From Candidatus Oxydemutatoraceae bacterium (GTDB taxonomy: Bacteria; Pseudomonadota; Gammaproteobacteria; Poriferisulfidales; Oxydemutatoraceae), in assembly GCA_965218975.1 (NCBI GenBank), contig OZ244717.1, forward strand, positions 384,001 through 448,000: a stretch of 64,000 bases of DNA, given 5' to 3'. The notes below the pieces were generated by a model. That model made no database searches. It was not told the origin of the DNA and was given only the letters and a program-made list of their open reading frames with translations. A program made the translations under genes and the position numbers. Shown here in pieces: positions 11,724-51,383 of the stretch; position 1 is the first letter of the stretch, and every line of letters starts with the position of its first letter.

Positions 11724-12670
11724 AAGGCGGAGACGCAAGCATGTCTAAAATGTTTGGCGTATGGCTTTGGAAAAAGATTGCAAACTGGTTGTCTCAGATC
11801 ACCATTGATGAGTTTTTATCGCCGAATGACATGAACTGTGTCATGCGGGAAATACGTGCGGGCGATGTGCTGTTGGTTGAAGGGCGCACGCGTATCGGTA
11901 ACGTTATTAAAATTATTACACGCAGTTCGTGGAGTCATGCGGCAATATGTATCGGGCGACTCGAAGAAATAAAAGATGAGAAAACTCGCGCATTGATTTT
12001 ACAGCATTATGACGGGGATACCTCAGTGCCGCTGATTATTGAAGCTGAGCTGAATAAAGGAACAGTGGTTGAACCGGTTACTTTTTATCTTTACCATCAT
12101 GTGCGAATTTGCCGTCCGGCAGGGCTCTTAAAAGAAGATGCCGACAAAATTGTCGCCTATGTTGCATCGTATCTCGGCAGTCATTACGATGTTCAACAAT
12201 TGTTTGACTTGGCGAGGTTTCTAATTCCGTGGTGGGTTGTTATTCCGCACCGTTGGCATTCGACGTTATTTGAACACAATGCCGGTATTCCGACGCGTAC
12301 TGTCTGTTCAACGATGATTGCCAGCGCATTCCGGCATGTTGATTTTCCTATATTGCCGCTAATTGAGCGATGTCCCGACGGCGGATTTAGAATGCGCCGG
12401 CGTAACCCAAAAATTTTCACGCCGCGTGATTTTGACTATTCACCATTTTTTCGTACGATCAAATGCCCGTTGTTGATAGATATGCATCACGGTTATTATC
12501 GTAAGTTACCATGGAACGATGAACAGAAAATGCATGATAAGATCAGCGATTATCTGGATTCGGCGGACGTTATTCATGTAAAAAGCGCTACCGATCCGAA
12601 CGATGAAAAATTTGGGCGACAAGATCACTCCGCCGATACGGTGCAATCCGATGAGAAACCAATCCGATGA
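11720..12670 (+). CDS. Permuted papain-like (YiiX/YebB-like NlpC/P60) amidase/acyltransferase
   Basis: GDVLLV, SSWSHAAI (His) before YD and VCSTMIA (Cys); true start may be ATG 11741. Confidence 0.75.
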   Translation: MKGGDASMSKMFGVWLWKKIANWLSQITIDEFLSPNDMNCVMREIRAGDVLLVEGRTRIGNVIKIITRSSWSHAAICIGRLEEIKDEKTRALILQHYDGDTSVPLIIEAELNKGTVVEPVTFYLYHHVRICRPAGLLKEDADKIVAYVASYLGSHYDVQQLFDLARFLIPWWVVIPHRWHSTLFEHNAGIPTRTVCSTMIASAFRHVDFPILPLIERCPDGGFRMRRRNPKIFTPRDFDYSPFFRTIKCPLLIDMHHGYYRKLPWNDEQKMHDKISDYLDSADVIHVKSATDPNDEKFGRQDHSADTVQSDEKPIR

Positions 12671-20263: not shown

Positions 20264-20367
20264 TTTAACCTCAGCGAATCGTTAGTCGCAGTGGTTCCGG
20301 GCCTCGCAGTTTAATGTTTTGTATGGCAAGCAGTCGGACGGTTTCTCCGATGATATCTGCGCAGATG
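20264..20367. repeat. Left copy of 104-bp direct repeat (displaced 3' end of pyrR)
   Basis: Aligns ungapped with 54773-54876, 6 mismatches by eye. Confidence 0.92.
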
Positions 20368-20943
20368 ACCGACTATCTCCTTGATGCAAACATCTTCATC
20401 CAAGCCAAGAACCTGCACTACGGCTTTGATTTCTGCCCCGCATTCTGGGACTGGCTGGTCAAGCAGAACCGCGCGGGAAAGGTTGCGAGCATTGAGAAAG
20501 TCGCCGACGAGCTCCACGCCGGCGAAGATGAATTGGCGACCTGGGCGAAGGAGCAGGACGACGACTTCTTTCTGAGGCCAGATAGCGCTGTTGTGCCCGC
20601 GCTCCGCACCGTGAGTAATTGGGCAAGCGGCAGTGTATACCAACCTGCCGCCGTCTCTACGTTCCTACCCAATCCGTACACCGGGGCACGGCTTGCTTTG
20701 CGGCGTGGATGCTAGCCTGCCGCCGTCTCTACGTTCCTACAGGTCGCCGACTACTGGCTTGTCGCGCATACGCTCGCTCACAGCTGCACTATCGTCACTC
20801 ACGAAGTGCCTGCCGACACCGTTCGCAAAATCAAGATCCCAGATGCCTGCATTGGCCTCAGTCTCCACTGCATGACCTCCTATGAGATGCTCCATCGTGA
20901 ACGAGCGAGGTTCGTCTTGGAACCAGGCAGAGAGGTTGCCTGA
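20365..20943 (+). pseudogene. DUF4411 (PIN-like) gene copy disrupted by a 72-bp insertion carrying TAG
   Basis: MTDYLLDANIFIQAKNLHYGFDFCPAFWDWL; paralog of 45330-45836. Confidence 0.85.
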
Positions 20944-21345
20944 TGGCTGGTTTCAACGAAAGCCACATCAAGGACGCCGCCCTCGAACGACTTGCCGGAC
21001 TCGGCTACGCCGTGCTGCACGGGCAAAACATCTCCCCGGACGGTCCGACACCTGAACGCGTCAGCTATGACCAGATGTTGTTAACCGCACGGCTTCGCGA
21101 GGCGCTCGGACACCTTAACTCGCACCTACCCGCCGAGACGCCAGAGGAGATACCGCGCTAGGTGCAGCAGACCGAGAGCCCCTCGCTCATCAAGGAGAAC
21201 CGGCGTCTACACCGCTATCTGATTGAGGGCGTGCCGGTTGAGGTTGCCCGCGAAGACGGCAGCATCGGCGGGGATGTCACCCGACTAGTCGACTTCGCGG
21301 ACGTGGACGCCAACGATTGGCTTGCGGTCAATCGGTACGTTGCCG
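20943..21345 (+). pseudogene. hsdR: Type I restriction enzyme HsdR N-terminal remnant
   Basis: MAGFNESHI..AAL..LAGLGY; in-frame TAG at 21159; ENRRLHRYLIEGVPVE...NDWLAVN then truncated by the repeat. Confidence 0.75.
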
Positions 21346-21589
21346 GATTTTCGGCAAAGCGCCCGTCGTCAGTGCTTGGCGTCCATGACGAGACTTGGTT
21401 CTGCCAATAAGCGCAGACCCCGACGTCCCTGTCTGTGAGCACGCAGACAGGTTTGTCGGGTCGTTCGCCGCTGAAAACCGATCGGTCCTGCCTGTGGATA
21501 CACAGACAGGTTTCCTGGCACGTCTTATCCTGCCGACAGGAAGAGAAGCTTTGCAAGTCTGATATATAAGCTATCGAATCCGGGGGTTT
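21340..21589 (+). repeat. Modular repeat copy (A, B, C with two nested 24-bp palindromes, module E)
   Basis: C unit interrupted at 21428-21451 and 21487-21510; E (21532-21589) matches 32997-33054. Confidence 0.8.
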
Positions 21590-21649
21590 AAAGGCGGGAG
21601 TATAGGAGTATAATTGGGTCATCCTTACAGGGACCTTAGTTATCAACTT

Positions 21650-23140
21650 ATGACGACCACGAAAAAAAATAATTCTTTTTCTAGTTCGTACTTTGACACA
21701 TATCGCAATTTGACAGAAGGTGTTGAAGCCATTGTAGAGGAAGTAGCAGAGGTTTATCTCAGTGACGAAATTCCTTGGACAGTAGGCTACAGTGGAGGTA
21801 AAGACTCAACCGCTGCGTTACAATTAATTTGGTATGCATTGCAGCACATCGGGGCTCATAGGGCACACAAGCCGGTTCATGTAATCAGCACAGATACATT
21901 GGTGGAAAACCCCATAGTTTCTACATGGGTAGTTAATTCATTGGGTAAGATGAATGACGCAGCCAAGGCGCAAGGCTTACCAATCACATCACATCGTTTA
22001 ATGCCAGCTTTGGCAGATCGATTTTGGGTAAATCTAATCGGTCGCGGATATGCAGCGCCTAGGCAAAAATTCCGCTGGTGCACCGAACGCTTGAAAATTC
22101 GGCCTGCACATAAGTTTATTACCTCCATGGTAGATAAACATGGGGAAAGCTTGTTGGTGCTTGGTACCCGCAAGGCAGAAAGCGCAAACCGGGCACGCAA
22201 TATGGCACGTTACGAAAAAGGAAGGATCAGGGACAAGATCAGCCCCAATGGGAGCCTAGCTAATTCTTACATTTATACCCCTATAGAGGACTGGAAGGCA
22301 GAAGATGTTTGGCTTTTCTTGCTAGAAAAACAAAATCCGTGGGGAAACAACAATATGGACTTGTTCGGGATGTATAAGGGCGCTACAGAAGGCGGGGAAT
22401 GTCCACTAGTGGTGTCTAGTGGTACTCCTAGTTGTGGTGATAGTCGTTTTGGTTGTTGGGTATGTACTTTGGTAGAGAAAGATAAATCCATGCAGGCAAT
22501 GATTCATAATGATGAGGAAAAACAATGGATGATGCCATTACTAAATCTGCGCTATGAAATTGATTTTAGAGTGATGCCAAAGGGAGATCGAGCTTTGCGA
22601 GATTATCGGCGTATGAATGGTCGCGTCCAGCTGTTCCACGGACAACCCATTCCGGGCCCCTACAAAAAAGAATTTCGTGAACATATGCTGTATCGTGTTC
22701 TAGAAACACAGGCGCTTGTTCGTCGTAAAGGACCTCAATACGTCCGCAACTTGTCTTTGATTCAACTAGAAGAGATCGAAGAGATTCGTCGTATCTGGGT
22801 TGTGGAAAAATATGAGATGGAAGATAGTCTTCCCCGTATTTATCGTGAAGCTACAGGTAAGGAATACCCTGGAAGCAAGCTTAACGATAGTGCAGTTTTT
22901 GGTACTGATGAAATGAATCTACTACGCGAACTATGTGGTGAAAATCAGAATCAATACGAAATGGTTCGGGAGCTGCTTGCAATAGGAAACCGCCAAAAAC
23001 TGGCTATACGCCGTACCGGAGTGTTCCAATCTCTACAAAGTGCCATAGAGCGCAACTTTTTTGCCGATGAAGAAGATGCTATTGACCGAGCCCGCAAACA
23101 TCAGCAGTGTTTAACGCCACAGTTGAATAACAGAAAATAG
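21650..23140 (+). CDS. dndC: DNA phosphorothioation sulfurtransferase DndC
   Basis: GYSGGKDS, DTLVENP, FRWCTERLKI, ECPLV...PSCGDSRFGCWVCTLV..DKSM; TATAAT at 21609. Confidence 0.93.
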   Translation: MTTTKKNNSFSSSYFDTYRNLTEGVEAIVEEVAEVYLSDEIPWTVGYSGGKDSTAALQLIWYALQHIGAHRAHKPVHVISTDTLVENPIVSTWVVNSLGKMNDAAKAQGLPITSHRLMPALADRFWVNLIGRGYAAPRQKFRWCTERLKIRPAHKFITSMVDKHGESLLVLGTRKAESANRARNMARYEKGRIRDKISPNGSLANSYIYTPIEDWKAEDVWLFLLEKQNPWGNNNMDLFGMYKGATEGGECPLVVSSGTPSCGDSRFGCWVCTLVEKDKSMQAMIHNDEEKQWMMPLLNLRYEIDFRVMPKGDRALRDYRRMNGRVQLFHGQPIPGPYKKEFREHMLYRVLETQALVRRKGPQYVRNLSLIQLEEIEEIRRIWVVEKYEMEDSLPRIYREATGKEYPGSKLNDSAVFGTDEMNLLRELCGENQNQYEMVRELLAIGNRQKLAIRRTGVFQSLQSAIERNFFADEEDAIDRARKHQQCLTPQLNNRK

Positions 23141-23151
23141 GAATCACATAG

Positions 23152-25131
23152 ATGATTCTTGATCAAATTACGTTACACAACTTCGGTGTATATGCTGACG
23201 TGCAAGAGATTGATCTAACTCCCCCATCCCGGAATAAGCCAATTGTATTATTCGGAGGATTAAATGGTACGGGCAAAACAACATTGATGGACGCGCTGCA
23301 ACTCTGTTTGTTTGGTACTGCAGCTAGGTGTGTAACGTGCAATGGAAGTAGTTATAAAGACTTTCTGACCAGCAGAATCCGCAAACGTTCACCGAGAAAA
23401 CATGCTTCTGTTTCAGTTGTTTTCCATTGCACAGCGGACGGTGTGGAAACCTCTTACCACGTGACGCGTACTTGGAAAAGTACTGGTAGCGGTATCAGAG
23501 AAAAGTTGGAGGTAACCCGCGACGAATGTTCTGACAAATCTCTAGCAGAGAACTGGGATCAATATATCAGTGAAATCATACCAGTAAATATTTCTCATCT
23601 GTTTTTCTTTGATGGTGAAAGAATTGCCTCCTACGCAGCATCGCATGGTATCAGTGAACTGATAGCGAATGGAGTACGCAACTTGTTCGGTATAGATGTG
23701 GTAGAACGCTTGCAAAAGGATCTTCAAATATTGGAACGGCGACAGGACACTACGATTTCTTCCGTAGACATTGATGACATCCACCAAAAGGAAAAAGAAC
23801 TACATACGCTTCACAGACAAATTGATCAGATGGAGAGAAGAAGGGTCATTTTACAAACACAGGGACTAGCTACTGCTAGGCATAATCTTGCCTGCGTAAT
23901 GCTGGAGTACAAAAAACTAGGAGGCGAATTACGTGATCGGCGAGAGGAAATACAGCGCCGTGTTAGCAAAGCAGAAGCCAATCTTGATGCCTGTAATGCT
24001 CAAATGATTGAACTCGCAAGCAGTGAATTACCATTGCTCCTGATTCGAGATCTGTTGCACGAAGTGGCCCGTCATGCGGCATACGAACAAAAGGTCATAC
24101 AGGCTCGTGCAATGGTTAAAAGTCTGCAACAGCGTGATGCCAAAATGCTTCGTTTAGCAAAAACTTTCCCGGGCACATCTGATTTATTGAAGGCTTTGCA
24201 AGAATTCTGCCAAGCCGATACAGAAAACCAAGAGAAGCTGGCAGCCTGTAAAACCCCGCTCAACGTAAGCGATACTACTACAGCAAGGCTGACAACATTC
24301 CTGCAAAACAGGCTACCTATTTTAGAAAAAAATCTTAGAGGTATATTTGCGAAGCAATCCGACTCCAAAGATGAAATGAAAGCAGCTCAGTTAAAACAAG
24401 CGGGAATTCCAGCAGAAGATTCTATTGATGAGGTTGTCAAAAACCGTGATTTACTGGTTACTAAAATTACACAATTAGAAGCCAAAGTCGCAAATATTGA
24501 TAGTGAACTTGAAAAAGTACATCGGAAGAGTAATCGCCTTGAATCCGAAATTAATGCTTTATGGACAGCGCATACCGAGTTGGAGTTGTTACATACGGAT
24601 GCTTCACGTTTTATTCGGCACTCACAATTAGCTAGACAGACATTGGCAGACTTCAGCTTGGCTGTGTTACGTCAACAAATCGGGCGTGTGGAACATTTGG
24701 CTCTAAAAAGTTATCAATCCTTACTACGAAAGGACAGATTGATCTCTACGTTACAAATTCATCCAGAGACCTTTGTTGTTTTTCTACGTGACATGGAACT
24801 AACCCCAATTTCACCAGAGCAGCTATCAGCCGGCGAGCGCCAGCTACTTGCAATTGCACTCATGTGGGGAATGGCAAAAGCATCAGGCAAAGCATTGCCT
24901 GTTGCCATTGATATGCCAATGGGACGTCTTGATTCCAGTCACCGGGAACGTCTAATCAAACGATACTTCCCCTATGCTAGTCACCAGACATTACTGTTTA
25001 CTACAGATGAGGAAATCGCTGGCGATTATTTATCTCAGTTGCGTCCTTGGGTCGGGAAGAGTTACCACTTAGATTATGACGATACAAAGGGTGCAACTAC
25101 TGTTTCTACCGGTTTTCTGGAGCGTTTATGA
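23152..25131 (+). CDS. dndD: DNA sulfur modification protein DndD (SMC-like ATPase)
   Basis: GGLNGTGKTT, FFFDGE, coiled coil, LSAGERQ, IDMPMGRLDS.HR, TDEEI. Confidence 0.92.
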   Translation: MILDQITLHNFGVYADVQEIDLTPPSRNKPIVLFGGLNGTGKTTLMDALQLCLFGTAARCVTCNGSSYKDFLTSRIRKRSPRKHASVSVVFHCTADGVETSYHVTRTWKSTGSGIREKLEVTRDECSDKSLAENWDQYISEIIPVNISHLFFFDGERIASYAASHGISELIANGVRNLFGIDVVERLQKDLQILERRQDTTISSVDIDDIHQKEKELHTLHRQIDQMERRRVILQTQGLATARHNLACVMLEYKKLGGELRDRREEIQRRVSKAEANLDACNAQMIELASSELPLLLIRDLLHEVARHAAYEQKVIQARAMVKSLQQRDAKMLRLAKTFPGTSDLLKALQEFCQADTENQEKLAACKTPLNVSDTTTARLTTFLQNRLPILEKNLRGIFAKQSDSKDEMKAAQLKQAGIPAEDSIDEVVKNRDLLVTKITQLEAKVANIDSELEKVHRKSNRLESEINALWTAHTELELLHTDASRFIRHSQLARQTLADFSLAVLRQQIGRVEHLALKSYQSLLRKDRLISTLQIHPETFVVFLRDMELTPISPEQLSAGERQLLAIALMWGMAKASGKALPVAIDMPMGRLDSSHRERLIKRYFPYASHQTLLFTTDEEIAGDYLSQLRPWVGKSYHLDYDDTKGATTVSTGFLERL

Positions 25132-25547
25132 CAAGCATTGGGAGTATTCGCCTGTCAAGTGCAGCAAAAGACCGTTTGTCTAATTTGAAACGGAAAACAG
25201 GCATATCCCAATGGAATATTCTGTGCAGGTGGGCATTTTGTCTTTCATTAGCAGAAAAAAGCATACCATCTGAAATAGATATAGTTACTGATAGCAATGT
25301 AGAAATGTCCTGGCGGACTTTTACGGGTCCAGGAAATGAGGAATTGTTTCTCGTCTTGCTAAAAGCGCGATGCCTTAGAGATCAGATCCCAACTGATACA
25401 CGAACCCTAACGCAACAGTTCAAGTTACATCTCCACCGTGGTATCGGTTATTTGACGACATCTGGAAAGATCAGATGTTTGGTTGATCTGCTTTCTCTCA
25501 CAATGCAGCATGAAGAAGGTCTGAGTAATAAAGGCTTAGTGAACTAA
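25128..25547 (+). CDS. dndE: DNA sulfur modification protein DndE
   Basis: LKRKTGI..WNILCRWAFCLSLAE, EMSWRTF, HLHRGIGYL. Confidence 0.92.
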   Translation: MTSIGSIRLSSAAKDRLSNLKRKTGISQWNILCRWAFCLSLAEKSIPSEIDIVTDSNVEMSWRTFTGPGNEELFLVLLKARCLRDQIPTDTRTLTQQFKLHLHRGIGYLTTSGKIRCLVDLLSLTMQHEEGLSNKGLVN

Positions 25548-25583
25548 TAACAAGTGTTGTTGGCTTTGTCGGGAATATTTTGA

Positions 25584-27713
25584 TTGTTAAGAGACCTTCG
25601 TTTACAAGAGGAATATTTTTCCGGTGACTTAGATTTGGTTGAGGTCTTTTATCGTCCATGTCTTTCCGAAGCTATCAGATACAATCGATCAGTCGGTTAT
25701 TTTCGTTCCTCAGTATTTATTTTAATTGGTTCAGACATCATCAACTTTGTGAAACGAGGCGGAAAAATACGCTTGATTAGTTCCCCAAGTCTAACAGAAG
25801 ATGATATTGAGGCTATTGATACGGGCTACAAAAGCAAATACGACAGTGCATGTAGCGCACTTAGTAGGGATATAGATTTTTTGCTAACGAACCAGTTGAT
25901 TACAAAGAATACAGAAGCATTAGCTACGTTAATTTCACTGGGCGCAATGGATGTCAAACTCGTCTTTTTACCTAAGGCTTGTGGTGATTATCATGCTAAA
26001 TTGGGGATTTTTTATGATGAGCTTAATAATGCCGTCAGCTTTAAAGGTTCAATCAATGAAACATGGAGTGGTTGGTATGAAAAGGGGAATCATGAAACTC
26101 TGGATGTATTCTGTAGTTGGCGCGAAGGTAGAGATGAGAGACAAGTAGGGCGCGACCAGAAATATTTTGAGAAGCTATGGAATGGCGAGGTTAAGGGCTT
26201 AGAGGTGATACCGTTTCCTAAAGTAGGAATAGAGAAGCTCAAAACGGTAGCCAAAAGATCCTTGGATGATATTAACTCTGGAGATATCATTGATTTTTTC
26301 AGTCTTGGTCATCAACTGGCAGAACATAAAATTAAGGAAGAGTCTCCTTCACATGAAATACGCAAACCTCTTAAGCATCAGTTAAAAGCTATTGCTGAGT
26401 GGAAAAAACAGGACAAAAGAGGGATTTTAGAACACGCAACTGGTAGCGGTAAAACGTTCACTGCCCTCACCGCCCTCAAAGAACACTTGGAGCCTCAAGG
26501 TGTAGCTATTATTTTAGTTCCAGATAAGCTGTTACATCGTCAATGGGCTGTAGAACTTATTGAAGAAATTGAAGGAGTGCATCTCTTAAAGGCAGGTGAT
26601 GGACACAACAGATGGAAAAAAGACAGGCGATTGTTTGATTTTACATCACCGTTACAGGGCTTAGGAAAAAGAGTTGTATTAGTGACGATGCAGACAGCGC
26701 GTACAGATGCTTTTCTAGCTTCTCTTAATCAAGGTAAACATATCATGCTAATTGCCGATGAGGTACATGAAGTTGGGAGTAGGGAGAACTCTAAAGCATT
26801 AACTATCGATTCGGGTCCAAGGCTCGGATTGAGCGCGACACCTAAAAGATATGGTGACCCTGAGGGCACATTCAAAATACTGAATTATTTTGGTGTAATT
26901 GTTCAGCCTCCGTATACATTAATAGATGCGATAAACGATAGGCGTCTTGTGCCCTATGAGTATTTCCCTGTGACTGTTCGGCTTGATGCGGAAGAGTCAG
27001 AGCAGTGGGCGAAAGAAACCGATAAGATTTCAAAGGAGTTTGCACGTTCTAAGCGAGATAGGGATGGGAATGTAAATATTTCGCCATATTTACAAAACTT
27101 AATCATCCAGCGTTCGAGGATAGCGAAGAAGGCTAAAGCAAAAACTCCTCTCGCGGTAGATATCATAAAGAAACAATATCATGAGGGCGAGAGCTGGCTC
27201 ATTTATTGTGAGGATCAGTTTCAATTAAGACAAGTCATGGATTCTTTAAAGCGTGAAGGATATTCTCCGTTGGAATACCATACGAATATGGAGAGTGATA
27301 CTACAGCGACCCTTGAGTATTTTAAGAATTTCGGGGGTGTACTTTGTTCTATCAAATGTTTGGATCAGGGAGTCGATATACCTAAAATTTCACATGCAAT
27401 TATTTTGGCTTCTTCCCAGAATCCAAGGCAATTTATTCAAAGACGAGGACGTGTTTTAAGAACATGCAAAGATAAATACAAGGCAGTTCTTTTCGATGCC
27501 ATTGTAGTGCCGGTAAGTTTGGAGTCTGAGCCAGAACAATTTTCTTTGCTAAAGAGTGAGTTCCAGAGGGGTATCCAGTTTGCTAAAACTGCGTTAAACA
27601 GTAGTGCGGCAATTGAATTGGCTAGCTTGGCTGTAGAGTTAGATATTGATCCGGAAGAGGTAGGGTTAATGGATGGCGACGGTATAGAGGAGGAAGAAAA
27701 TAACGATGTCTGA
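25584..27713 (+). CDS. pbeA: PLD-domain plus SF2 helicase, PbeA-like
   Basis: YHAKLGIF..GSINET (PLD-like), ATGSGKT, DEVH, SAT, QRRGR; directly follows dndE. Confidence 0.75.
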   Translation: MLRDLRLQEEYFSGDLDLVEVFYRPCLSEAIRYNRSVGYFRSSVFILIGSDIINFVKRGGKIRLISSPSLTEDDIEAIDTGYKSKYDSACSALSRDIDFLLTNQLITKNTEALATLISLGAMDVKLVFLPKACGDYHAKLGIFYDELNNAVSFKGSINETWSGWYEKGNHETLDVFCSWREGRDERQVGRDQKYFEKLWNGEVKGLEVIPFPKVGIEKLKTVAKRSLDDINSGDIIDFFSLGHQLAEHKIKEESPSHEIRKPLKHQLKAIAEWKKQDKRGILEHATGSGKTFTALTALKEHLEPQGVAIILVPDKLLHRQWAVELIEEIEGVHLLKAGDGHNRWKKDRRLFDFTSPLQGLGKRVVLVTMQTARTDAFLASLNQGKHIMLIADEVHEVGSRENSKALTIDSGPRLGLSATPKRYGDPEGTFKILNYFGVIVQPPYTLIDAINDRRLVPYEYFPVTVRLDAEESEQWAKETDKISKEFARSKRDRDGNVNISPYLQNLIIQRSRIAKKAKAKTPLAVDIIKKQYHEGESWLIYCEDQFQLRQVMDSLKREGYSPLEYHTNMESDTTATLEYFKNFGGVLCSIKCLDQGVDIPKISHAIILASSQNPRQFIQRRGRVLRTCKDKYKAVLFDAIVVPVSLESEPEQFSLLKSEFQRGIQFAKTALNSSAAIELASLAVELDIDPEEVGLMDGDGIEEEENNDV

Positions 27714-27897
27714 ATCAAGTAATATCATTGCTCTTTTGCTGAATATTAAAGAACGTGAGGGATTGGATGTTGATGATCAACTTATAAAGCAATGTTATGA
27801 ACTACAAAAAAAATACCAGTTTGATCTAACTCGTAATACAGTTGAAAGAATGCGCGAGTTAGTTGAGGCCAGTCTTGATAAAAATGATGGCCGGTAG
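27706..27897 (+). CDS. Small DNA-modification-system-associated protein, PbeB-like
   Basis: 63-aa ORF overlapping the helicase stop and preceding the ATPase; position matches pbeB. Confidence 0.6.
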   Translation: MSESSNIIALLLNIKEREGLDVDDQLIKQCYELQKKYQFDLTRNTVERMRELVEASLDKNDGR

Positions 27898-27902
27898 TTG
27901 TT

Positions 27903-29888
27903 ATGAAAGTAAAAAAAGTAATCTTCCATAATTTTATGCCCTTCAAGGGTACGCAGAAAATCGAGTTTCCCCAGCATGAAACACAAAATGTGATGTTGCT
28001 CTTTGGCGATAATATGCGTGGAAAAACAAGCTTCTTAAATGCAATCCGCTGGGGGTTTTATGAAGTCGCTCTAGGTCGTCACTTACGTAAAATTCCCAAG
28101 TTAAATCTGGTCAATCGTGATGCCGCGGATGAGGGAGATTGGGCAATGTCCGTTTCCTTGTATTTTGATCACAATGGAAGAAGCTATCAGCTAAATCGCA
28201 GGATTGAGAAACGTGAAAACACGCCAATACCTAGAAACGATTCCGATTTTAAGAAGATTATCGGTCTGAGAATTGATGGGACTCTCATAACAGGTGACTC
28301 GATTGACAATGAAATTAACCAAGTGATGCCACAGGAAGTGTCACGGTTTTTTTTGTTTGATGGTGAGTTGCTTCAAGAGTACGAAAACCTTTTAATTGAG
28401 GAAAGTGATCAAGGCAGGAAAATTAAAAAGCATATTGAATCTGTACTAGGTGTTCCGGCATTAGTGCATGCGAGGGATGAATTACAGGTATTGTTGAAGG
28501 ATGCACGTACTGCCCAACGTAAAGATGCTCAAAAATATCAAGAGTTACGTAACTATGCACAAGAACAAAAGAATCACGAGATAAAACTGGAAAGTATAGA
28601 AAACAACCTTGAAAAATTAAATTCTCAAAAAGAAGATTATCAGGAAAAAATTGATGATATCGACGACTTTCTAAAAAATACAGAGGCAGTACAAAATAGA
28701 AAAATTGAACTTACTCGGTTAGATGCTGAGCAAGAGGGCCTAGAAGATGAAATTAATCGGTCTAACGAAGATACTCATAGATTATTAAAAACAGCTTGGA
28801 AGGATGTATTGGCCAATAGTGTTCAAACCATTGTTAACAATTTAAAAGAGGAACGCAAAAGGCACGAACAAATTACCAAAGAGTCTATCAGTCTACAGGG
28901 CAAGATAGAAGGATTGCGAAAATCGCTTAAAGATAACAAAGTTTGTGATACCTGTGGGCAGGATATTCCCGATAGTATCAGGGCGCCGATGAAGGAAAAA
29001 TTAGATAAGCTGCTGGCCGAAAGATCAGAAAAAAAAGTTGATCCTGAGAAGTTAACGGAAATCAAAAACACCATTGATAACCTGGAAAGTATACGCTCTG
29101 AAGGCGAAGTCAAGCGAATAGTTGCCAATCAAGACGCTGTTACCCGAAATAATGTGAATTTGACGACTATTGAAAATAAGCGAGATGATCTCGAAGAGGA
29201 AATAAAAGGATATGATACAGAGGAAATAATGCGAAAACGGGAAAAATATCAACGTTGTATGAAGCTGTTAGGGGAAATTGAAGCCAAGATTAAAGATAAC
29301 AACGAAAAAAAGGAGGAAAATATCCAAAAGCAAGAAAGAATATCTCAATTGATTGCCAAACTTGGAGGAGCTCAAAGTTTAATTAGTAATCAGCGAGTAG
29401 ACAAATTGCAACAATTAGAAAAGATTTTTTCAGAAGGTATCAATCAACTGCGCCTCAAACTAAAAGATGATGTGGAAAGGCATGCAACTAAAGCTTTTAA
29501 ACAAATAACCACTGAAAAAACTTACTTGGGTCTGAAAATTAACCAAAGCTACGGTTTGTCTATTTTAGATAAGGAGGAACGAATAGTTGATGAGCGTAGT
29601 GCCGGCGCAGAGCAAGTTGTTGCGTTGTCATTAATTGATGGGCTTAATAAAACTTCAGGTACAGAAGCCCCGATAGTTATGGACACACCTTTGGGGCGTT
29701 TGGATCCCAAACATCGCAGAAATATACTGCAATATCTGCCGGATATGTCTGAGCAGGTTGTATTGTTGGTGCACGAGGGTGAGATTCGTGCCAAGCAAGA
29801 TTTGGAAATTATTGCCTCACGCATTGGTGCACGCTATGAAATCAAACGTGTTTCTGCGACACAATCTCGTATTGATAAGGTGATATAA
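27903..29888 (+). CDS. pbeC: SMC/Rad50-like ATPase with CxxC, PbeC-like
   Basis: GDNMRGKTS, FLFDGE, CDTCGQ, SAGAEQ, MDTPLGRLD. Confidence 0.72.
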   Translation: MKVKKVIFHNFMPFKGTQKIEFPQHETQNVMLLFGDNMRGKTSFLNAIRWGFYEVALGRHLRKIPKLNLVNRDAADEGDWAMSVSLYFDHNGRSYQLNRRIEKRENTPIPRNDSDFKKIIGLRIDGTLITGDSIDNEINQVMPQEVSRFFLFDGELLQEYENLLIEESDQGRKIKKHIESVLGVPALVHARDELQVLLKDARTAQRKDAQKYQELRNYAQEQKNHEIKLESIENNLEKLNSQKEDYQEKIDDIDDFLKNTEAVQNRKIELTRLDAEQEGLEDEINRSNEDTHRLLKTAWKDVLANSVQTIVNNLKEERKRHEQITKESISLQGKIEGLRKSLKDNKVCDTCGQDIPDSIRAPMKEKLDKLLAERSEKKVDPEKLTEIKNTIDNLESIRSEGEVKRIVANQDAVTRNNVNLTTIENKRDDLEEEIKGYDTEEIMRKREKYQRCMKLLGEIEAKIKDNNEKKEENIQKQERISQLIAKLGGAQSLISNQRVDKLQQLEKIFSEGINQLRLKLKDDVERHATKAFKQITTEKTYLGLKINQSYGLSILDKEERIVDERSAGAEQVVALSLIDGLNKTSGTEAPIVMDTPLGRLDPKHRRNILQYLPDMSEQVVLLVHEGEIRAKQDLEIIASRIGARYEIKRVSATQSRIDKVI

Positions 29889-30263
29889 ATGGAAGAACCG
29901 CAACGAATTGGTTTAACCGCGCAAGCGAATGCCTATCTTGATGGAATGCTTGATTCTCTGAATAGTGAAACCGACGCGCCAGATTTGATCAAGTTTGATT
30001 TATATCGCTTGGCGGTAGCTTTGGGAGTAAAGAAAGGCATAACACCTGAGCCTTTATCAGACAAAACCGATAATGCATTTCGTGTGGGAGAGTTAGACCC
30101 GGATAAGGCATTGTTTTTTGCGGTTGATGCTGCAAATTTACAGGAACCAGGTAAATCAATTTATCGTACTGTTGAGGCTTTGGGAGAACAGGGTATTCGA
30201 CATTTCTATGATACTTACCGTGAGAATATGGATAAGCTGCACTGGGATAAACTACTTACTTAG
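29889..30263 (+). CDS. Small protein, PbeD-like by position
   Basis: Starts immediately after the ATPase stop; [10 protein letters not shown]...EALGEQGI. Confidence 0.55.
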
Positions 30264-30265
30264 TT

Positions 30266-32203
30266 ATGTCTGCGCTTAAACTTTATCTGATTGTAGTTAA
30301 GAGCAATCAGGTCGAAGAAATTGTCACTATTCGTGAGCTAGACAGCTGCCATCAAATATGGAGCGCACATTCTTGCATTGGTAAAACCGCTATTATTCAC
30401 TGTGGGTTTACAAGACCTCAAGTCAATCAGTGCATTGAACTTCCAGAGAACACACAAGGCAAAGTGCTGTATTCCGGAGCAATGAAGTGGGCACTTCCGG
30501 AAATATACAAAAGCAGTGTAAACGCTATCGCACATATAGAGTTGGACAAAGCTGCGACTCCTTGCTACTTTGCTTTAAATCAGTGGGGCTATGAGATTGA
30601 CGAATTAGAGGCCGAACCAAAAGTTGAAGCCGAATCAGAAGTTGATGACCTAGAGGTTGATGACCCAATTTTACAGCGTCCGATTGACGTATTGAGGTTG
30701 ACTGTACGTGCAACAAATAGCCTGAAATCAGATAGTATCCTCTATATTGGAGAATTGGTTCGGCATACAGAAATTGAGCTATTAAGAATTCCCAATTTGG
30801 GTAACAAAACTTTGAAAGAAATTAAGAGTGCATTAGCCATGTATGGTTTATGTTTAGGGACAAAACTGGAAAGCTGTCCATTCCCAGGGACAAGTGAAAT
30901 GCCTGAGGTCACAACTGATAAAAGCAATTCGAACCGTTTAAATTCTCAGGTGGCACAAGTACCTTTGATACAACATTTGGAAAGGACATTAGGTGAATTG
31001 AGTGATGTGGATAGAGTAGTCTTGCAGGGACGTCTTGGGCATAAAGGGAAAACTCTGACGCTAGATGAAATTGGTGAAAAACTAAATGTTACTCGAGAAC
31101 GAGTCAGGCAGCGTCAAATGAAATACACCAATCGAATCATTGCACAGGAATACTGGGACGATCTAATCGGAATTCGCATCGGACAACTTTTACTGGACAG
31201 AGAAGAACCACTTATTCTTGAGTTGCTGGATATTGAAGATGAATGGCTTAAAGGATTCGGAGACAATTACATCTATCTTGCTAATGTAATACAACTGTTC
31301 TCAAAAAATGCAGTGTATGTTATCAAAGCAGCTGGTAGAAGTGTTGTAACAAGGATTAAACAAAATGAGTGGGATGATCTAGAAAGTGGACTTCGCACAA
31401 AATTAAAACAAAAAGCTGAGGAAAGGAGATGGAGACGAAGCGAAATCATGCAATACTTAGAATCCAGCTTATTCGAGTTCAGTTCACAAGAATTAGCCCC
31501 TCTTTTACATGAAATTTTTGATGAGTTTCTGCAATATCAAGACGGAAGTCAACAAGCAATACTAATGGCTTTTGGGAAATCCGTGGAGTCTGTAGCTAAT
31601 ACAGTGCTTGCTCAAGCAAGAAGACCTTTACATTTTACAGAAATTGCTGAAAGGGCAAATAAATTATTGGGTAGAAAAGTGGACGAAAGACGAACGCATA
31701 ATGCCCTTAATCAGGAGCATATCTGGCTGTTTGATCGTGGCACTTATGGATTGATTGAGCATTGTCCTCTACCTGCCTCCAAACGCCAAAGTGTTTGTAG
31801 CACAGTAGAGAAAATCCTTTATCAAGGCCCGATCAATAAGCAGTGGCATTCAAAACAAATAGTTGATCAGTTGACTTCCATGTTTCCAGGTGATTTGAAA
31901 GATTTAGACCCCTATGTATTGCGGATGTGCATAGAGCACTCTCCAAAAATTACATTTTTAAACCGTATGGTTTGGGCAAGAGCGGATTCTAGAATGAAGG
32001 TCGGCGATAGAATCGAAATAGCTAATGCTTTTATCCAAATACTAGAGGCGGTAGGTAGACCTCTAAGCGGTCAAGAATTGAAACACCGCTTATCTGACAT
32101 CAGGGAAGTTTCAGAAAACATGCAGATACACGAAAATGAACGTTTGATCGTAGTTGGCCCAAACTTATGGGGGCTGAGTGATTGGGGCTATTCAAAAGGG
32201 TGA
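30266..32203 (+). CDS. Multidomain protein: RNA polymerase alpha-CTD, sigma70 region-4 HTH and C-terminal winged-HTH-like repeats
   Basis: [22 protein letters not shown]...[13 protein letters not shown] (alpha-CTD); [18 protein letters not shown] (sigma 4.2); RPLHFTEI...GTYGL and GRPLS..EL...LWGLSDW. Confidence 0.8.
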
Positions 32204-32400
32204 CCGACATGCAATATCAACACATCGGCCACCGCATCAAAGGTTTCTATATGAGCCAATTTAACTAACAAAATGGAGGCTCATGAGCACTCTAATCTTC
32301 AACAGAAATATGCTGCCCTCATTTTGGGAGGGTTGTAACTCCCGGGCACATTCAAGATCGGTCGCAGTACTTTGTACCGCTGGCGCCGGCGCTATCGCCG
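32194..32400 (+). repeat. Repeat module F (hairpin-rich, ~200 bp)
   Basis: AAAAGG(G)TGACCGA..TG.AATATCAACACATCGGCCACCGCATCAAAGGTTTCTAT; matches 33101-33227 and the reverse complement of 59645-59860. Confidence 0.85.
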
Positions 32401-32483
32401 CACTGAGCAGAGCGCCTTGCATGACCGCGACCCCGCTTGCGCGCCTCGGCGCGGGCAGGAAAGCGCCGCGCAAGAGGCGGCGG

Positions 32484-33227
32484 CGGATTGTGCCGGATTG
32501 TCGGTAGGTTGTGCCGGATTATTAGCAAAGTACATGTCGTCCATGACGAAACTTCGTGCTGTCAACAAACCCCAGCCCCGACATCCTTGTCGGGTCGTTC
32601 ACCGCTGAAAACCGTTCGGTTTTCCGGGCGCGTCTCATCCATGACGAAACTTCGTGCTGTCAACAAACCCCAGCCCCGACATCCTTGTCGGGTCGTTCGC
32701 CGCTGAAAACCAATTGGTTTTCCGGGCGCGCCTCACCCATGACGAGACTTGGTGCTGTCAATGAACCCCAGCCCCGACGTCCTTGCCGGGTCGTTCACCG
32801 CTGAAAACCGATCGGTCCTGCCTGTGCGGCGCACGCAGACAAGTTTCCGGGCGCGTCTCACCCTGCACCGCCCTCATGCCAGCAACGGACAGAAAGCACC
32901 GGTCCGAATGTTACTGCCGAATACTTCTCCAGAAGATCTGCAAGAATCCCACTAGGGTGGCATCGTTGCATAAGCTCAGAAACATTTGGCACTCCGCCCG
33001 ACATGAGGAGCAGCCATGCAAATCCAATATATAGGTTATCGAATCCGGGGGGTTGCCGGGTGTACGTGTCCGGATACATACCGGATTCTCGGACCTCAAT
33101 AAAAAGGTGACCGATATGCGATATCAGCACATCGGCCACCGCATCAAAGGTTTCTATAAAATAGCTAATTTTGCTTCAAAAATGGAGGCTCATGAGCACA
33201 GCTGCTCAACAGAAACACGATGTCCTC
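32484..33227 (+). repeat. Most complete modular repeat copy: A-(B-C)x3-D-E-G-F
   Basis: C units near 32570, 32668, 32767 (last with a 27-bp nested palindrome); D about 32864-32966; E 32997-33054; F from 33101. Confidence 0.85.
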
Positions 33228-33711
33228 TGAGCATGCGGCCAGGGGACATCACCATGATCGCCATAGACGCGATGAGCATGTGCATGATGAAGAGCGTCAT
33301 CACGACCGCCGCCAACGCGATATGCACATCTGGCTTGATCCGGAAAATGCCAAACAAATCGCGCGCGCCATTGCTGAAGAATTAAGCGCAGTCTATCCCG
33401 GCAACCGTGACGCGTACAAGGCTAATGCCGCCGATCTGATTAGCCGTATCGATACACTAGACGCAATGCTGCGGTCTGAGTTAGCGGAGTTGCGAGATAA
33501 ACGGTTCGTCGTTTTCCATGACGCCCATCAGTACTTTGAACGCCATTATGGATTGAGCGCGGTCGGGTCAATCGCATTTGATCCCGGCGCGGCGCCGTTG
33601 CCGAACCATATCCGAACAGCGCGCGCAGCTGCGGCAAACGGGCGCAAAATGCGTCTTTCGCGAACCTCAATTCTCAGACCGAGTAATCAATACCGTCATT
33701 GAAGGAACAGT

Positions 33712-36276: not shown

Positions 36277-36503
36277 TCCGAGCATATAAACGGTCCGCTG
36301 CCCAGGCCGCAGCTCCGTCTTCCAAAATGGAACCTGGCGGAAAGGGGGCCTGCCGCCAGCAGTTTTCAGGGGCAGCCAGGACACTTCTTTGATTATCATT
36401 GACATGCCGATAAATATGCCCTTTATTCTGTCAGGAGCCTGCTTGACCAATCACGCGCCATCATGCGGTACCGTGTCAAACGGGGTGTGAATTGGGGCAC
36501 GAG

Positions 36504-37080
36504 ATGGCAAGGCTCTCGGTGCGCAAGGTCGGAACCGCGCAGACCTGGGTTCAGCGGCTCACCATCCGGAGGGCGCGGACGGACAACAGCATCGGGTGCT
36601 ATCCGGCCATGAGTTTGGCGGAAGCATGCACGGCAGTCTTCGGGCGTTGGAAGACCACCAAGGCGAGCAGCCAGATCGTGGCACCGACATTCGCGGAAGC
36701 TGCCGAGACCATCATCGCCATGCGCGAACCGACTTGGCGCAGTCCAAATTCCGGGCACCAATGGCGTGCCGGTCCCGAGACCTGCGTCTCTCCGAGCATC
36801 GGAAAGCTATCCGTGTCGGAAGTGACACTGGGCCGCGTTATGGCGATTCTGCTGTCGCTCCGGAGCGCGAGACACGAGACAACTCGATGCCGGCTCTAGC
36901 CTACCCTGAGGTTACCGACTACATCACCGGGACCCGGACCGGACGGCGGGTGGTCCTCGCATTGAAGCTGGCGCTCAAGTACTCGCTCCTGACGGCCACT
37001 TGGTCGGCCGAGATGCGCAAGGCGACATCGGCCAAGACCGACATGAACAGCACCATGCGGACGCTGCTGTATCATTTTTT
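36504..37080 (+). pseudogene. Highly decayed P4-like tyrosine integrase
   Basis: MARLSVRKV, WVQRLTI...G.YPAMSLAEA (arm-binding), PTFAEAA, MPALAY, LLTAT.SAE.R fragments in different frames. Confidence 0.65.
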
Positions 37081-40490: not shown

Positions 40491-41075
40491 TCACGCCTGT
40501 CATTGCCGCGCCGGCGGACAGTGACAGGCTGCTAAATCGCCCGAAGCGCCTGCAGCGACGCAGCTTGCTAAGCATGTTCCTTCGTGCCGAATTGATGATG
40601 CGGCATTCCGGCGTGATACATGCGTAGCAACTGTAGGCTACACATGGTAGCCGTGACCGGCCCGGGAAACCGACGTGGCGCCGAAGGATATTAAAGCGCC
40701 ATACCGCAGCATCGCGACCTGGAGGACGCACCGGGAGATGGTGCACCGGCACGTCACGTTGAGTAATTGACGAGCGCATCATAGGCGGCTTGGCGGCTGC
40801 AGAACGGAAGGCGCGCTGCATGACCAAGCAGCAATCCAGCTTGGAAGCCGACCTCGCCGTGGCATGACGGATCACGTGGATGCAAAACCCAGCGCGCAGA
40901 CAGCAAACCACACGCGTGAACTGATGCCCGAAACCGAAGATCGCGGCCTGTATAGTGCCAGATACATATGGGACTCACGGCTTAATCTAAATCGGTTTGC
41001 CGTTTCAGGGGAAACTACAGACCGGATGTCACCGGGCGCATTCTTGGCAGCCCTAAGCTCTTCGAACCGATGAAA

Positions 41076-41325
41076 CCGTTTTGTGTTTGTTGTCGGATTG
41101 TTGGCAAAGTACATGTCGTCCATGACGAGACTTGGTGCTGTCAATGAACCCCAGCCCCGACATCCTTGTCGGGTCGTTCGCCGCTGAAAACCAATTGGTT
41201 TTCCGGGCGCGTCTCACCCGGCACCGCCCTCATGCCGGCAACGGACCGAAAGCACCGGCCCGAATGTTACTGCCGAACACTTCTCTCGAAGCGCTTCAAA
41301 AATCCCATTTAGGGTGGCATCGTAC
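41076..41325 (+). repeat. Modular repeat copy (A-B-C-D) directly upstream of the ssrA promoter
   Basis: C unit near 41150-41219; D ends AAAATCCCATTTAGGGTGGCATCGTACA as at about 6890. Confidence 0.88.
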
Positions 41326-41383
41326 AAATGATAGCCGAATCCGAGCAATTTGGTTATAATCCCTCGCGCTGATTAATTTCTCT

Positions 41384-41751
41384 GGGGCGATCTGGCTTCG
41401 ACGGAGATCACAAAACTTGAGGCGCATGCCGAGCCGGCAGTAAAACTCGTAAAACTGGACTGCAAAATATTAGTTGCCAACGAAGACAACTACGCACTGG
41501 CGGCCTAAGAAACCGTCCATGCCTCTTATGAATTAGGTGCTTGTGCCGGTTCAATAAGGGTCGTTTACACAAGATCGCAGCAAGATAGTCTGTGTTCTTG
41601 CTGTTAAACCTGGTAACAGGTTAATACAGAATCGTTGATGACAGCTCTTGTTTGGTCAGAAGTTATCAATTAAATTAAAGACGAAACTAAGCATGTAGGG
41701 CCAACAGCGGCGGATTTTCGGACGCGGGTTCAATTCCCGCCGCCTCCACCA
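41384..41751 (+). ncRNA. ssrA: tmRNA
   Basis: 5' GGGGCG...TTCGAC; tag frame ANEDNYALAA-stop at 41476-41508; 3' GGGTTCAATTCCC...CTCCACCA; TATAAT at 41355. Confidence 0.96.
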
Positions 41752-41916: not shown

Positions 41917-43158
41917 ATGCCACGAATAACCAAACCCCTCTGTGAAACAGAGGTCAAGCACGCCAAGCCCAAAGGCACTACTTATAACCTTGCAGATGGA
42001 AAAGGCCTATACCTCAAGATCAAGCCCAGCGGCTATAAGGTTTGGATATTCAACTATTACCGGCCATTCACCAAAAAACGAACTGTTGACACTCTTGGCG
42101 AATACCCCGTTATAACTCTCGCCAAGGCACGTTCTAGACGCAATGAATACTTAAAGCTGCTTGCTGATGATATCGACCCGATCGAGCACAAGCTTGAAAA
42201 GAAGAGAATTCATACAGAGAAAAGCAAAAATACACTGGAAGCTGTGACCAGTTGATGGATCAAGGTCAAAAGCAGCCAAGTCTCTGAGGCACATGCAAAA
42301 GATATCTACAGATCACTGGAACTGCATATCTTTCCCGCGCTCGGCAAATTGCCCCTTCACAAAATCAGAGCAAAGCAAGTTATTGAAGTATTAGAGCCTT
42401 TAGCGGCGAAAGGCTCCCTGGAAACTGTAAAACGTTTAATCCAGAGATTAAATGAAATCATGGTCTACGCAGTAAATACAGACCTGGTGGCTACGAACTG
42501 CCTTTCAGGAGTAAGCAAAGCATTTGCTTCACCGGAAAAAAATCACATGCCTACCCTGAAACCGGAGCAATTACCGGAATTAATGAGAGCCATTGCCAAT
42601 GCCAGTATCAAGAAAACTACTCGATGCCTGATCGAGTGGCAATTGCACACAATGACAAGGCCTGGCGAGGCCGCCGGTACAAGATGGGAAGAAATAGACT
42701 TTGAGAAAAAATTGTGGGCTATCCCTGCCATGCGCATGAAAAAGAAACGCCCTCATAAAGTGCCCCTCTCGCCACAAACACTGGTTTTGCTTGAAGTAAT
42801 GAAACCGGTTAGCGCGAACAGAGCATATGTATTTCCTGTGGACAGAAACCCTAGAACCCACACCAACCCAGCAACTGCCAACATGGCGCTCAAAAGAATG
42901 GGGTACGGTCGCTTGTTAGTTGCTCATGGTCTCAGAGCTCTAGCCAGCACTACGTTGAATGAGCAAGGCTTTGATCCTGATACCATTGAGTCGGCATTAG
43001 CCCATTCGGACAAAAACGACGTCAGAGACGCATACAACCATGCTGAATATCTGGAACGTAGGAGAGTCATGATGTGCTGGTGGTCTGAACATATAGAAGC
43101 TGCTGCAGAAGGAAACCTCAGCCTTTCAGGCACTAGAAAATTAAGAGCCGTCAACTGA
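41917..43158 (+). pseudogene. P4-family tyrosine integrase adjacent to ssrA, one in-frame TGA at 42253
   Basis: LADGKGLYL arm domain; TRPGEA, MKKKRPHKVPL, HGLR, LAH, YNHAEY; both ORFs in the same frame. Confidence 0.9.
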
Positions 43159-45329: not shown

Positions 45330-45836
45330 ATGACCGACTATCTTCTCAATGCAAACGTCTTCATTCAAGCCAAGAATCTGCACTACGGCTTTGATTTCTG
45401 CCCCGCATTCTGGGACTGGCTGGTCAAGCAGAACCACACGGGAAAGGTTGCGGGCATTGAGAAAGTCGCTGACGAGCTCCACGCCGGCGAAGATGAATTG
45501 GCGACCTGGGCAAGGGAACGGGACGACGACTTCTTTCTGAGGCCGGATAGCGCTGTTGTGCCCGCGCTCCGCACCGTGAGTGATTGGGCAAGCGACAGTG
45601 GGTACCAGCCTGCTGCCGTCTCTACGTTCCTACAGGTCGCCGACTACTGGCTTGGCGCGCATGCGCTCGCTCACAGCTGCACTATCGTCACTCACGAAAT
45701 ACCTGCTGACACTATTCGCAAAATCAAGATCCCAGATGCCTGCATTGGCCTCAGTCTCCACTGCATGACTCCCTATGAGATGCTCCGTCGTGAACGAGCG
45801 AGATTCGTCTTGGGGCCGGGCAGAGAAATCGCCTGA
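45330..45836 (+). CDS. DUF4411 (PIN-like) protein
   Basis: YLL(N)ANVFIQAK, FWDWL, AD.WL, IVTHE, KIPDAC; first PIN Asp is Asn here; followed by only 11 nt of hsdR before the IS. Confidence 0.8.
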   Translation: MTDYLLNANVFIQAKNLHYGFDFCPAFWDWLVKQNHTGKVAGIEKVADELHAGEDELATWARERDDDFFLRPDSAVVPALRTVSDWASDSGYQPAAVSTFLQVADYWLGAHALAHSCTIVTHEIPADTIRKIKIPDACIGLSLHCMTPYEMLRRERARFVLGPGREIA

Positions 45837-49223: not shown

Positions 49224-49231
49224 TCGACGAT

Positions 49232-49573
49232 CTAGAAATCGTTGTCCAGGCTTTCCGGTTGGCGGGCTCGAGCACGCTTGCGGTGCAGGGTGAGCGCTAG
49301 CCCCTCCTTGTCGAGTGCCGGATCTGCAATCTCTCTCAAGGCTTCCAGCAGGTCATACGCCCAAAGCAGCGCAATGTAGACTGCAACTCCGGTCGAAGGC
49401 TTGCCTTGCTCGGCATTGGACACTGGGCGCGGACCAGTACCGATCTTCTTGGCAACGTCCTGGATCGTGAGGTTCCTCTGGAGCCTTGCAGTTCGCAGGT
49501 TGGCACCTAATTGTTTCAGCACCTGTTCCACGGGATAGGGGGGTGCGGTTGTCAATGTGTTTCTAGCGGTCAT
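49232..49573 (-). CDS. XRE-family HTH antitoxin (HipB-like)
   Basis: LGANLRTARLQRNLTIQDVAKKIG...EQGKP; immediately upstream of hipA. Confidence 0.85.
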   Translation of the reverse strand: MTARNTLTTAPPYPVEQVLKQLGANLRTARLQRNLTIQDVAKKIGTGPRPVSNAEQGKPSTGVAVYIALLWAYDLLEALREIADPALDKEGLALTLHRKRARARQPESLDNDF

Positions 49574-51370: not shown

Positions 51371-51383
51371 ATAGGACAAGATC

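Follow-up and report, generated by a model that had tools for sequence, protein, structure and literature searches.

A dnd-pbe phosphorothioation cassette among decayed IS481-like insertion sequences in a Candidatus Oxydemutatoraceae genome

The cassette and its flanks

The genome of a Candidatus Oxydemutatoraceae bacterium (GCA_965218975.1), a single contig of 2,081,000 bases with 47.7% GC, carries a dnd-pbe phosphorothioation cassette that is bordered on both sides by pieces of interspersed repeats. The origin of these pieces, and the way in which the cassette came to lie between them, are considered here. The window is the whole stretch analysed, 64,000 nucleotides (nt) of contig OZ244717.1 (positions 384,001 to 448,000), and position numbers refer to it unless they are marked "genome". 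A sequence-only reading had divided the repeats into modules lettered A to G and had proposed that they form a landing pad, or recombination platform, by which defence modules are captured. It placed eight genes between modules E and F at the dnd locus, and the open reading frames (ORFs) found there, listed below with their PADLOC and Pfam matches, agree with this count.

21590-32185 (+), foreign dnd-pbe cassette, 10,596 bp, about 41% GC
21650-23140 (+), dndC (PADLOC DndC, 1.6e-180)
23152-25131 (+), dndD (PADLOC DndD, 7.2e-187)
25128-25547 (+), dndE (PADLOC DndE, 2.1e-18)
25584-27713 (+), pbeA (PADLOC PbeA, 2.2e-212)
27706-27897 (+), pbeB-like gene, 63 aa, placed by position
27903-29888 (+), pbeC (PADLOC PbeC, 3e-261)
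29889-30263 (+), pbeD-like gene, 124 aa, placed by position; no PADLOC or Pfam match
30266-32203 (+), helix-turn-helix (HTH) protein, 645 aa, with RpoA-CTD, sigma-70 region 4 and HARE-HTH; native stop lost

The GC content ranges from 36 to 47% across the cluster and from 51 to 62% just outside it. Pfam found DndE and PAPS_reduct in the cluster. Neither Pfam nor PADLOC gave a match to the cysteine desulfurase DndA among the eight ORFs; the housekeeping enzyme IscS can stand in for DndA. The closest described system is DndCDEA-PbeABCD, whose archaeal prototype, as outlined in Xiong et al. 2019 (PMC6459918), has a pbeB of 66 aa and a pbeD of 152 aa. Both systems, on that outline, combine dndC, dndD, dndE, pbeA and pbeC with small ORFs at the places of pbeB and pbeD, whereas the present cluster is without dndA and is closed by an additional protein of 645 aa. 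This protein, which lies outside the described PbeABCD set, is conserved as the eighth gene of the cassette, with 63-71% identity to its counterparts at two further bacterial loci.

The two other loci come from gammaproteobacterial metagenome-assembled genomes (L015 and L016). They hold the gene block in the same order within a low-GC island, at 63-92% amino-acid identity for the seven of the eight genes that were compared. The proteins that flank the cassette in the window (fadB, an AMP-binding gene, DUF4411, and the hsdR and znuA fragments) gave no tblastn match in either locus; the repeats themselves were not searched there. In L015, a 67-nt direct repeat derived from the end of a neighbouring gene flanks the cassette (1160-1226 and 12065-12131; 78% identity, spacing 10,905), and no integrase lies inside this bracket. 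This repeat may point to transfer of the cassette in one piece, through some mechanism that leaves a target duplication. In the window, the cluster is horizontally acquired and trimmed almost to its coding limits.

The immediate flanks consist of gene fragments and of pieces of two insertion sequence (IS) lineages, called IS-A and IS-B. In the lines below, G, F, H and D are modules of IS-A, x is a remnant of its transposase, and E belongs to IS-B.

21162-21338 (+), N-terminal fragment of hsdR (type I restriction), 57 aa; homology to an hsdR-like ORF of genome G012 (a 528-aa open frame in the fetched stretch) stops at 21338
21340-21532 (+), internal fragment of an IS-A derivative: H and one diverged 98-nt unit, a rare variant with a hairpin insert; without F or D
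21533-21589 (+), module E of the sequence-only reading, positions 33-88 of the IS-B left end; inverted repeat missing, homology stops at 21589
32186-32193 (+), eight junction bases, GGCTATTC (by eye)
32194-32966 (+), decayed IS-A copy without left inverted repeat
32194-32320 (+), F leader, part of this copy
32321-32476 (+), x, N-terminal transposase remnant
32477-32540 (+), H, followed by three 98-nt units (32541-32834)
32844-32966 (+), D, the right end, without the terminal ACA
32967-33061 (+), IS-B left end, positions 1-95, which opens with the inverted repeat TGCATAAGC...; it holds the E of the supposed empty version
33061-33227 (+), nested IS-A left end: inverted repeat 33061-33100 (module G) and F leader 33101-33227; cut off and fused to the znuA fragment
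33220-33702 (+), znuA fragment, positions 86-204 of 263 in the Pfam ZnuA profile

On the left, the end of a diverged unit runs directly into the 5' side of E, and the cassette starts only 60 nt ahead of the dndC start codon at 21650. The 61 nt that follow E were compared by local alignment with the continuation of IS-B and with a degraded IS-A inverted repeat, and neither candidate was kept: between 85 and 222 of 500 shuffled sequences scored as high, and in a further comparison 272 of 300 did. A sigma-70-like site (TTTAAA, 16 nt, TATAAT; 10 of 12 positions) at 21587-21614 spans the junction between E and the cassette, 36 nt before the dndC ATG. With one such site found against 0.5 expected, it is not significant; to judge from the sequence, a hybrid promoter of this kind may drive the operon.

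On the right, the sequence-only reading correctly noted that F, which begins at 32194, supplies the closing codons and the TGA of the final gene (TAT TCA AAA GGG TGA). In L015 and L016, the last protein ends with ...NLWGLSEW or ...SEWQ; here it ends with ...LSDWGYSKG. Since these ends differ, the native stop has been lost, and five codons and the TGA come from the eight junction bases and F. The eight bases might represent the tail of an IS-A inverted repeat that has degraded. No inverted repeats, target duplication or att-like repeat were found where the cassette begins and ends.

The left junction was recovered in five public runs from two studies. Contigs of runs X1, X2 and X4 agree fully with the window across 21457-25766 and 30092-32228, which confirms the assembly at both junctions. 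Some joints skip about 11.3 kb (21408 to 32671, 21477 to 32844 and 21486 to 32844); their sides measure only 23-25 nt and link unit and tail positions, as would be expected from other repeat copies. None of the 15 joints listed connects E to F, and contig data of this kind are mute on a rare empty allele.

Two insertion-sequence lineages behind the modules

Copies of the modules were counted by BLAST against the whole genome, and E was counted where at least 40 nt aligned. The matches on which the sequence-only reading was built are sound. Module E at 21533-21589 agrees with 32998-33054 at 46 of 57 nt (80.7% identity, 11 mismatches; genome-wide E-value 5.9e-9), and the F copies at 32194-32320 and 33101-33227 are 80.9% identical over 131 aligned columns (E-value 4.7e-28), with 93% identity over the first 58 nt. 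Module G (40950-40982) also recurs past mcrBC, where H-U-D, U being the 98-nt unit, comes next and is followed by ssrA.

The arrangement A-B-C-D-E-G-F as one element with F as its tail did not survive the genome-wide comparison. The 98-nt unit is present in about 320 copies, F in 60 full-length and 18 partial copies, and D in 76 full copies. The remnant x follows 51 of the 60 full-length F copies in the same orientation. A 98-nt unit is found within 600 nt past F in 42 of the 60, and 38 of these 42 also have a full D within 2.5 kb. U, D or E occurs within 300 nt upstream of F in only 3 of the 60 copies, and both U and D stand there only at the window copy at 33101. Because x, U and D lie downstream of most F copies and rarely upstream, F is the head of the element and not its tail. 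Therefore, the F at 32194 goes with the array at 32477-32966 on its right.

The ends of IS-A can be recognised in the same way. A stretch of 40 nt (TGTAYRGTGCC...ATACAT..., in two or three variants) precedes nearly all 69 F heads, with unrelated sequence beyond it in the 100 nt of upstream sequence printed. A strict ungapped test finds this inverted repeat before 56 of the 69; most of the other 13 have an indel, and about four lack it, the F at 32194 being one of them. Nearly all of the 80 D ends listed close with ...GGCATCGTACA or ...AATCCCATTTAGGGTGGCATCGTACA, an imperfect inverse of the left 40-nt stretch, and unrelated sequence follows. From these inverse termini and the unrelated flanks beyond them, G (or the spacer S) together with F is read as the left end and D as the right end of IS-A. 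The layout of IS-A is thus a 40-nt left inverted repeat, an F leader with a ribosome-binding site and ATG, a transposase (of which x is the N-terminal remnant), and D with the right inverted repeat. In the source genome, its interior has largely been replaced by arrays of the 98-nt two-hairpin unit, and the decayed copies consist, in this order, of F, what is left of the transposase, the 98-nt units and D. Module G corresponds to the 40-nt left inverted repeat, and the 46-nt spacer that the sequence-only reading saw between E and F is made of 6 nt of IS-B leader and the 40-nt IS-A inverted repeat.

Several further observations concern the distribution of IS-A. Two F heads, neither with an inverted repeat, face each other as a palindrome at genome 790913-791067, which is a rearranged IS-A left end. 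Additional arrays are mapped at genome 275417-275900 and 278997-279453, with D in forward orientation on the left and x in reverse orientation on the right, an arrangement that differs from the one at the dnd locus. Throughout the genome, IS-A right ends very often lie 5-35 nt before TTGACA-like and TATAAT-like hexamers (e.g., window 41323-41360), and one of these copies ends just before the ssrA promoter. Insertion near promoters may be favoured by IS-A, or the element may itself contribute a portion of a promoter. At Rfam gathering thresholds, the tmRNA was the sole match in window 5000-45000, and the repeat modules match no RNA family.

The transposase was traced with the IS481 profile NF033577 (curated cut-off 224 bits), searched in six frames across the genome. 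This gave 118 fragments, none above the cut-off and the best at 90 bits; an intact IS481-like transposase was not found in the source genome by this search. The window sequence between F and the units, 32348-32470, corresponds to profile positions 22-62. The modules had been regarded as a non-coding element, and this description has to be replaced: they are coding-derived ends of IS481-like insertion sequences.

Relatives provide the intact form. Window 32194-33227 was used as a query against 18 other genomes of the family, and what follows comes from the matches listed. Eleven of the 18 match solely at F and the inverted-repeat parts or, in one genome, at the E part. The 98-nt unit has no match among those listed for the 18 genomes, and the expansion of its arrays seems private to the source genome. 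In three genomes (G015, G003 and G002), an F-like leader is directly followed by an uninterrupted match to NF033577 positions 2-283. The frames stay open for about 353-390 aa (for 769 aa in a single G003 copy), the ORF in G015 has 349 aa, and the apparently intact copies number 10, 9 and 9, respectively (e.g., L021 1402-2451). When the leaders are aligned, F is conserved through GGAGGCT and the ATG. The best NCBIfam model for these transposases is IS481, with 198 bits over profile positions 2-282 against the cut-off of 224; IS3 reaches 112 bits. Because the scores are below the cut-off, the elements are named IS481-like and not certified as IS481 members.

IS-B was recognised from module E, of which the genome holds 20 copies. 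In 17 of the 20, alignment with the flanks reveals a sharp 5' start, TGCATAAGC... or TGCATAAGCTCAGAAACATTTGGCAC, with unrelated sequence upstream. Eight copies continue through a leader into an ATG and a typical HTH transposase N-terminus, and positions 1-105 of NF033577 are found directly downstream of E copies (e.g., genome 206345-206674 and 1204495-1204827). Owing to the sharp start and the run-on into transposase, E is assigned to a second IS481-like lineage, whose left inverted repeat and leader it comprises. Its copies are broken at many positions (about 40, 56, 59, 59, 65 and 76).

IS-A lies inside the IS-B leader at three places: at window 33061 (about position 95), at genome 136476 (about 95) and at genome 565162 (about 85). 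At genome 136563-136304, the IS-A joint comes after IS-B position 95, as in the window; at genome 565077, it comes about 10 nt earlier. Spacer S was also tried as an IS-B leader that has merely diverged, in which case E-S-F would be a single ancestral end. The alignment is confined to the first 6-13 nt, and 145 of 500 shuffled sequences reach its score. Since S fails to align as IS-B leader, E-G-F is read as a nested insertion. Consequently, 32477-33227 consists of three pieces, namely the body and right end of one IS-A, the left end of an IS-B, and the left end of a second IS-A nested in it. What had been taken for the empty version of a capture element is an IS-A copy in an IS-B leader.

The elements show features of the IS481 family and its derivatives, including those that resemble miniature inverted-repeat transposable elements. 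They share imperfect terminal inverted repeats starting with TGT, a leader with a ribosome-binding site and ATG, and many internally deleted copies that retain both ends; the intact copies of relatives also have just one DDE/rve transposase ORF, about 350 aa long. They differ in that the interiors in the source genome are tandem 98-nt two-hairpin arrays and that no intact copy is left. BOX, BIME and NIME are modular intergenic repeats. The present repeats are like these mosaic elements in their head-units-tail construction and in the many copies scattered between genes, but their head and tail demonstrably derive from IS ends and from remnants of transposase.

Origin of the arrangement around the cassette

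It is likely that the modules are what is left of two related IS481-like insertion sequences after their genome-wide decay, and that the cassette sits in passive debris. On this account, the dnd-pbe cassette would have been acquired horizontally and trimmed nearly to its coding limits, and illegitimate junctions would have joined it to position 88 of IS-B on the left and to an IS-A without its inverted repeat on the right. Entry might have occurred by repair of a break at an IS end or by recombination with DNA of a related strain, and neither would require a platform.

The cassette may have interrupted an earlier nested IS-B::IS-A pair, with loss of the IS-A inverted repeat; the chances for and against this are roughly balanced. 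Otherwise, separate deletions associated with the insertion sequences would have carried the two flanks up to the cassette. The left junction, at IS-B position 88, falls inside the 85-95 stretch that holds IS-A in three other IS-B copies, and the right junction lies 31-41 nt inside an IS-A left end of the same orientation. The assessment rests on these positions: the left break is in the 85-95 stretch, the right break takes little beyond the IS-A inverted repeat, and the orientation agrees. In that event, the cassette might have taken the place of a link of about 46 nt like the one between E and F next door. The earlier proposal that the defence cluster splits an E-F order stands as far as geometry, position and orientation are concerned, and is not supported with regard to a capture function.

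Four points weigh against the interpretation as debris. The left break is at most 7 nt from the IS-A sites (about 85 and 95) in the three other copies and the right break takes little beyond the inverted repeat, in the same orientation, as targeted or end-initiated insertion would give. Target-site duplications of 5-7 bp were seen by eye round a few IS-A copies (genome 1242871/1243749, 1677134/1678479 and 87490/89040) and are absent round many others. Even the intact transposases of relatives stay under the NCBIfam IS481 cut-off (198 versus 224 bits). Finally, the order of events is inferred from the single allele assembled.

Pure coincidence is a sub-case of the preferred explanation, carries about half its weight, and is by itself possible although short of an even chance. 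According to it, E and F are leftovers that independent deletions brought beside the cassette, and their likeness to E-G-F has no historical meaning. IS481-like fragments are very dense (118 in 2.08 Mb), and a randomly chosen site is followed within 11 kb by an F head in its own orientation with a probability of 0.166. The many break positions of E copies point the same way, as does the left flank, which is a chain of unrelated fragments (hsdR, array, E). Against this stand the agreement in orientation and the coincidence of both breaks with the junction of the nested pair.

The idea of a landing pad, in which the joint of IS-B leader and IS-A inverted repeat is an insertion hot spot and cassettes are captured through breaks made by IS481-like transposase or through homologous recombination on portable IS arms when DNA passes between strains, is unlikely. 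It draws on three different junctions that fall within about 10 nt of the IS-B leader (positions about 85, 88 and about 95), and on E and F flanking the cassette in the orientation of the uninterrupted arrangement. It does not agree with the genome-wide distribution of the modules. Three of the 20 E copies abut F, at 43-48 nt; of the other 17, three (0.18) have an F within 11 kb, against 0.166 by chance. These are the dnd locus, with 10,605 nt between E and F, and two others with 6,946 and 7,624 nt, in which E is either truncated at position 40 or runs on into the remnant of its own transposase, and is not broken at 88. Thus, E and F are mostly apart and their spacing is that of chance, in essence the outcome that the sequence-only reading had named as refuting its proposal; the 19 other E copies in the genome have no cargo between E and F beyond chance, and none has cargo running from an E broken at 88 to F.

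No machinery for such capture was seen in the source genome either. Only decayed IS481-like transposase fragments (118, the best at 90 bits) were found in the search for a cognate recombinase or nuclease, and the nearest integrase genes are either fragmentary (36492-36899) or split (41917-43158, beside ssrA). At 80.7% identity, the left E has diverged further than any other copy, which speaks against a recent exchange between IS arms, and judging from loci L015 and L016, the cassette exists elsewhere without these repeats. Recent duplication of the flanks by Campbell-type integration was rejected as well: 21340-21589 and 32477-33054 are 71.6% identical over 155 nt, and the left piece has its best match elsewhere, at 78%. 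The hairpin-insert variant of the unit, which the two flanks have in common, occurs at three to four other sites. The resemblance to integrons and cassette platforms (attI/attC with an integrase) is superficial, consisting of a repeat on each side of a defence cassette; unlike them, the locus has no adjoining recombinase, its junction does not recur with other cargo, and the cassette ends lack a conserved recombination-site structure. It is improbable that decayed IS481-like pieces serve as de facto docking sites, with the IS-B leader/IS-A joint as a genuine hot spot.

A composite transposon, with the cassette as the mobile cargo of a pair of IS481-like copies whose outer ends have since decayed, is very improbable: direct-orientation remnants do lie on both sides, and IS-A derivatives were apparently mobile units (the few 5-7-bp duplications by eye), but the left piece is only 57 nt of IS-B leader without an inverted repeat, the right copy is without its left inverted repeat and terminal ACA, the two flanks come from different lineages with no duplication round the whole unit, and inner rather than outer ends face the cassette, which fits the nested pair better.

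The variable stretch and the meaning of the locus

The cassette is one module of a variable stretch of 34.6 kb (20264-54876), and the repeats are passive debris in this patchwork of defence genes and mobile elements, not a dedicated capture platform. The following features mark the left edge of the stretch and the surroundings of ssrA.

20264-20367, copy of a phosphoribosyltransferase 3' end, about 105 nt, a direct repeat of 54772-54876 (93%); left edge of the variable region
20314-20715 (+), DUF4411 gene fragment, 93% paralogous to 45330-45836
40949-41326 (+), short IS-A derivative with both ends: left inverted repeat 40949-40986 (G), H-U-D 41056-41323, terminal ACA to 41326
41383-41751 (+), tmRNA gene ssrA

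The parent gene of the repeat is the phosphoribosyltransferase at 54780-55283 (-), and at AGATG the left 105-nt copy passes straight into the beginning of a DUF4411 gene. The 105-nt bracket looks like an att-type duplication or a rearrangement scar, although ssrA lies inside it. The short IS-A derivative ends about 57 nt ahead of ssrA, itself part of the variable stretch. Besides the cassette, it includes fragments of DUF4411 and hsdR genes, a further IS (DDE_Tnp_1) in two copies, an integrase fragment, mcrBC, ssrA together with its split integrase neighbour, an HNH gene, and M78 paired with DUF4411. A hipBA locus lies at 47955-49573, and a bacterial HORMA domain gene stands next to an AAA ATPase gene at 50751-52274, as in the accessory pairs of cyclic-oligonucleotide-based antiphage signalling systems (CBASS). 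Searched against the relatives, the flanking core genes gave weak matches at the DNA level, about 67-87% over short stretches.

With these results, an apparent capture platform becomes a familiar arrangement, an acquired phosphorothioation operon amid IS481-like debris; a defence cassette in IS debris is of a kind already known. The abundant modular repeats of this genome gain an origin, in that their head and tail are the ends of insertion sequences whose intact relatives are found in sister genera. For the annotation of the genome, this means that more than 100 loci are to be read as decayed insertion sequences and not as regulatory or novel elements.

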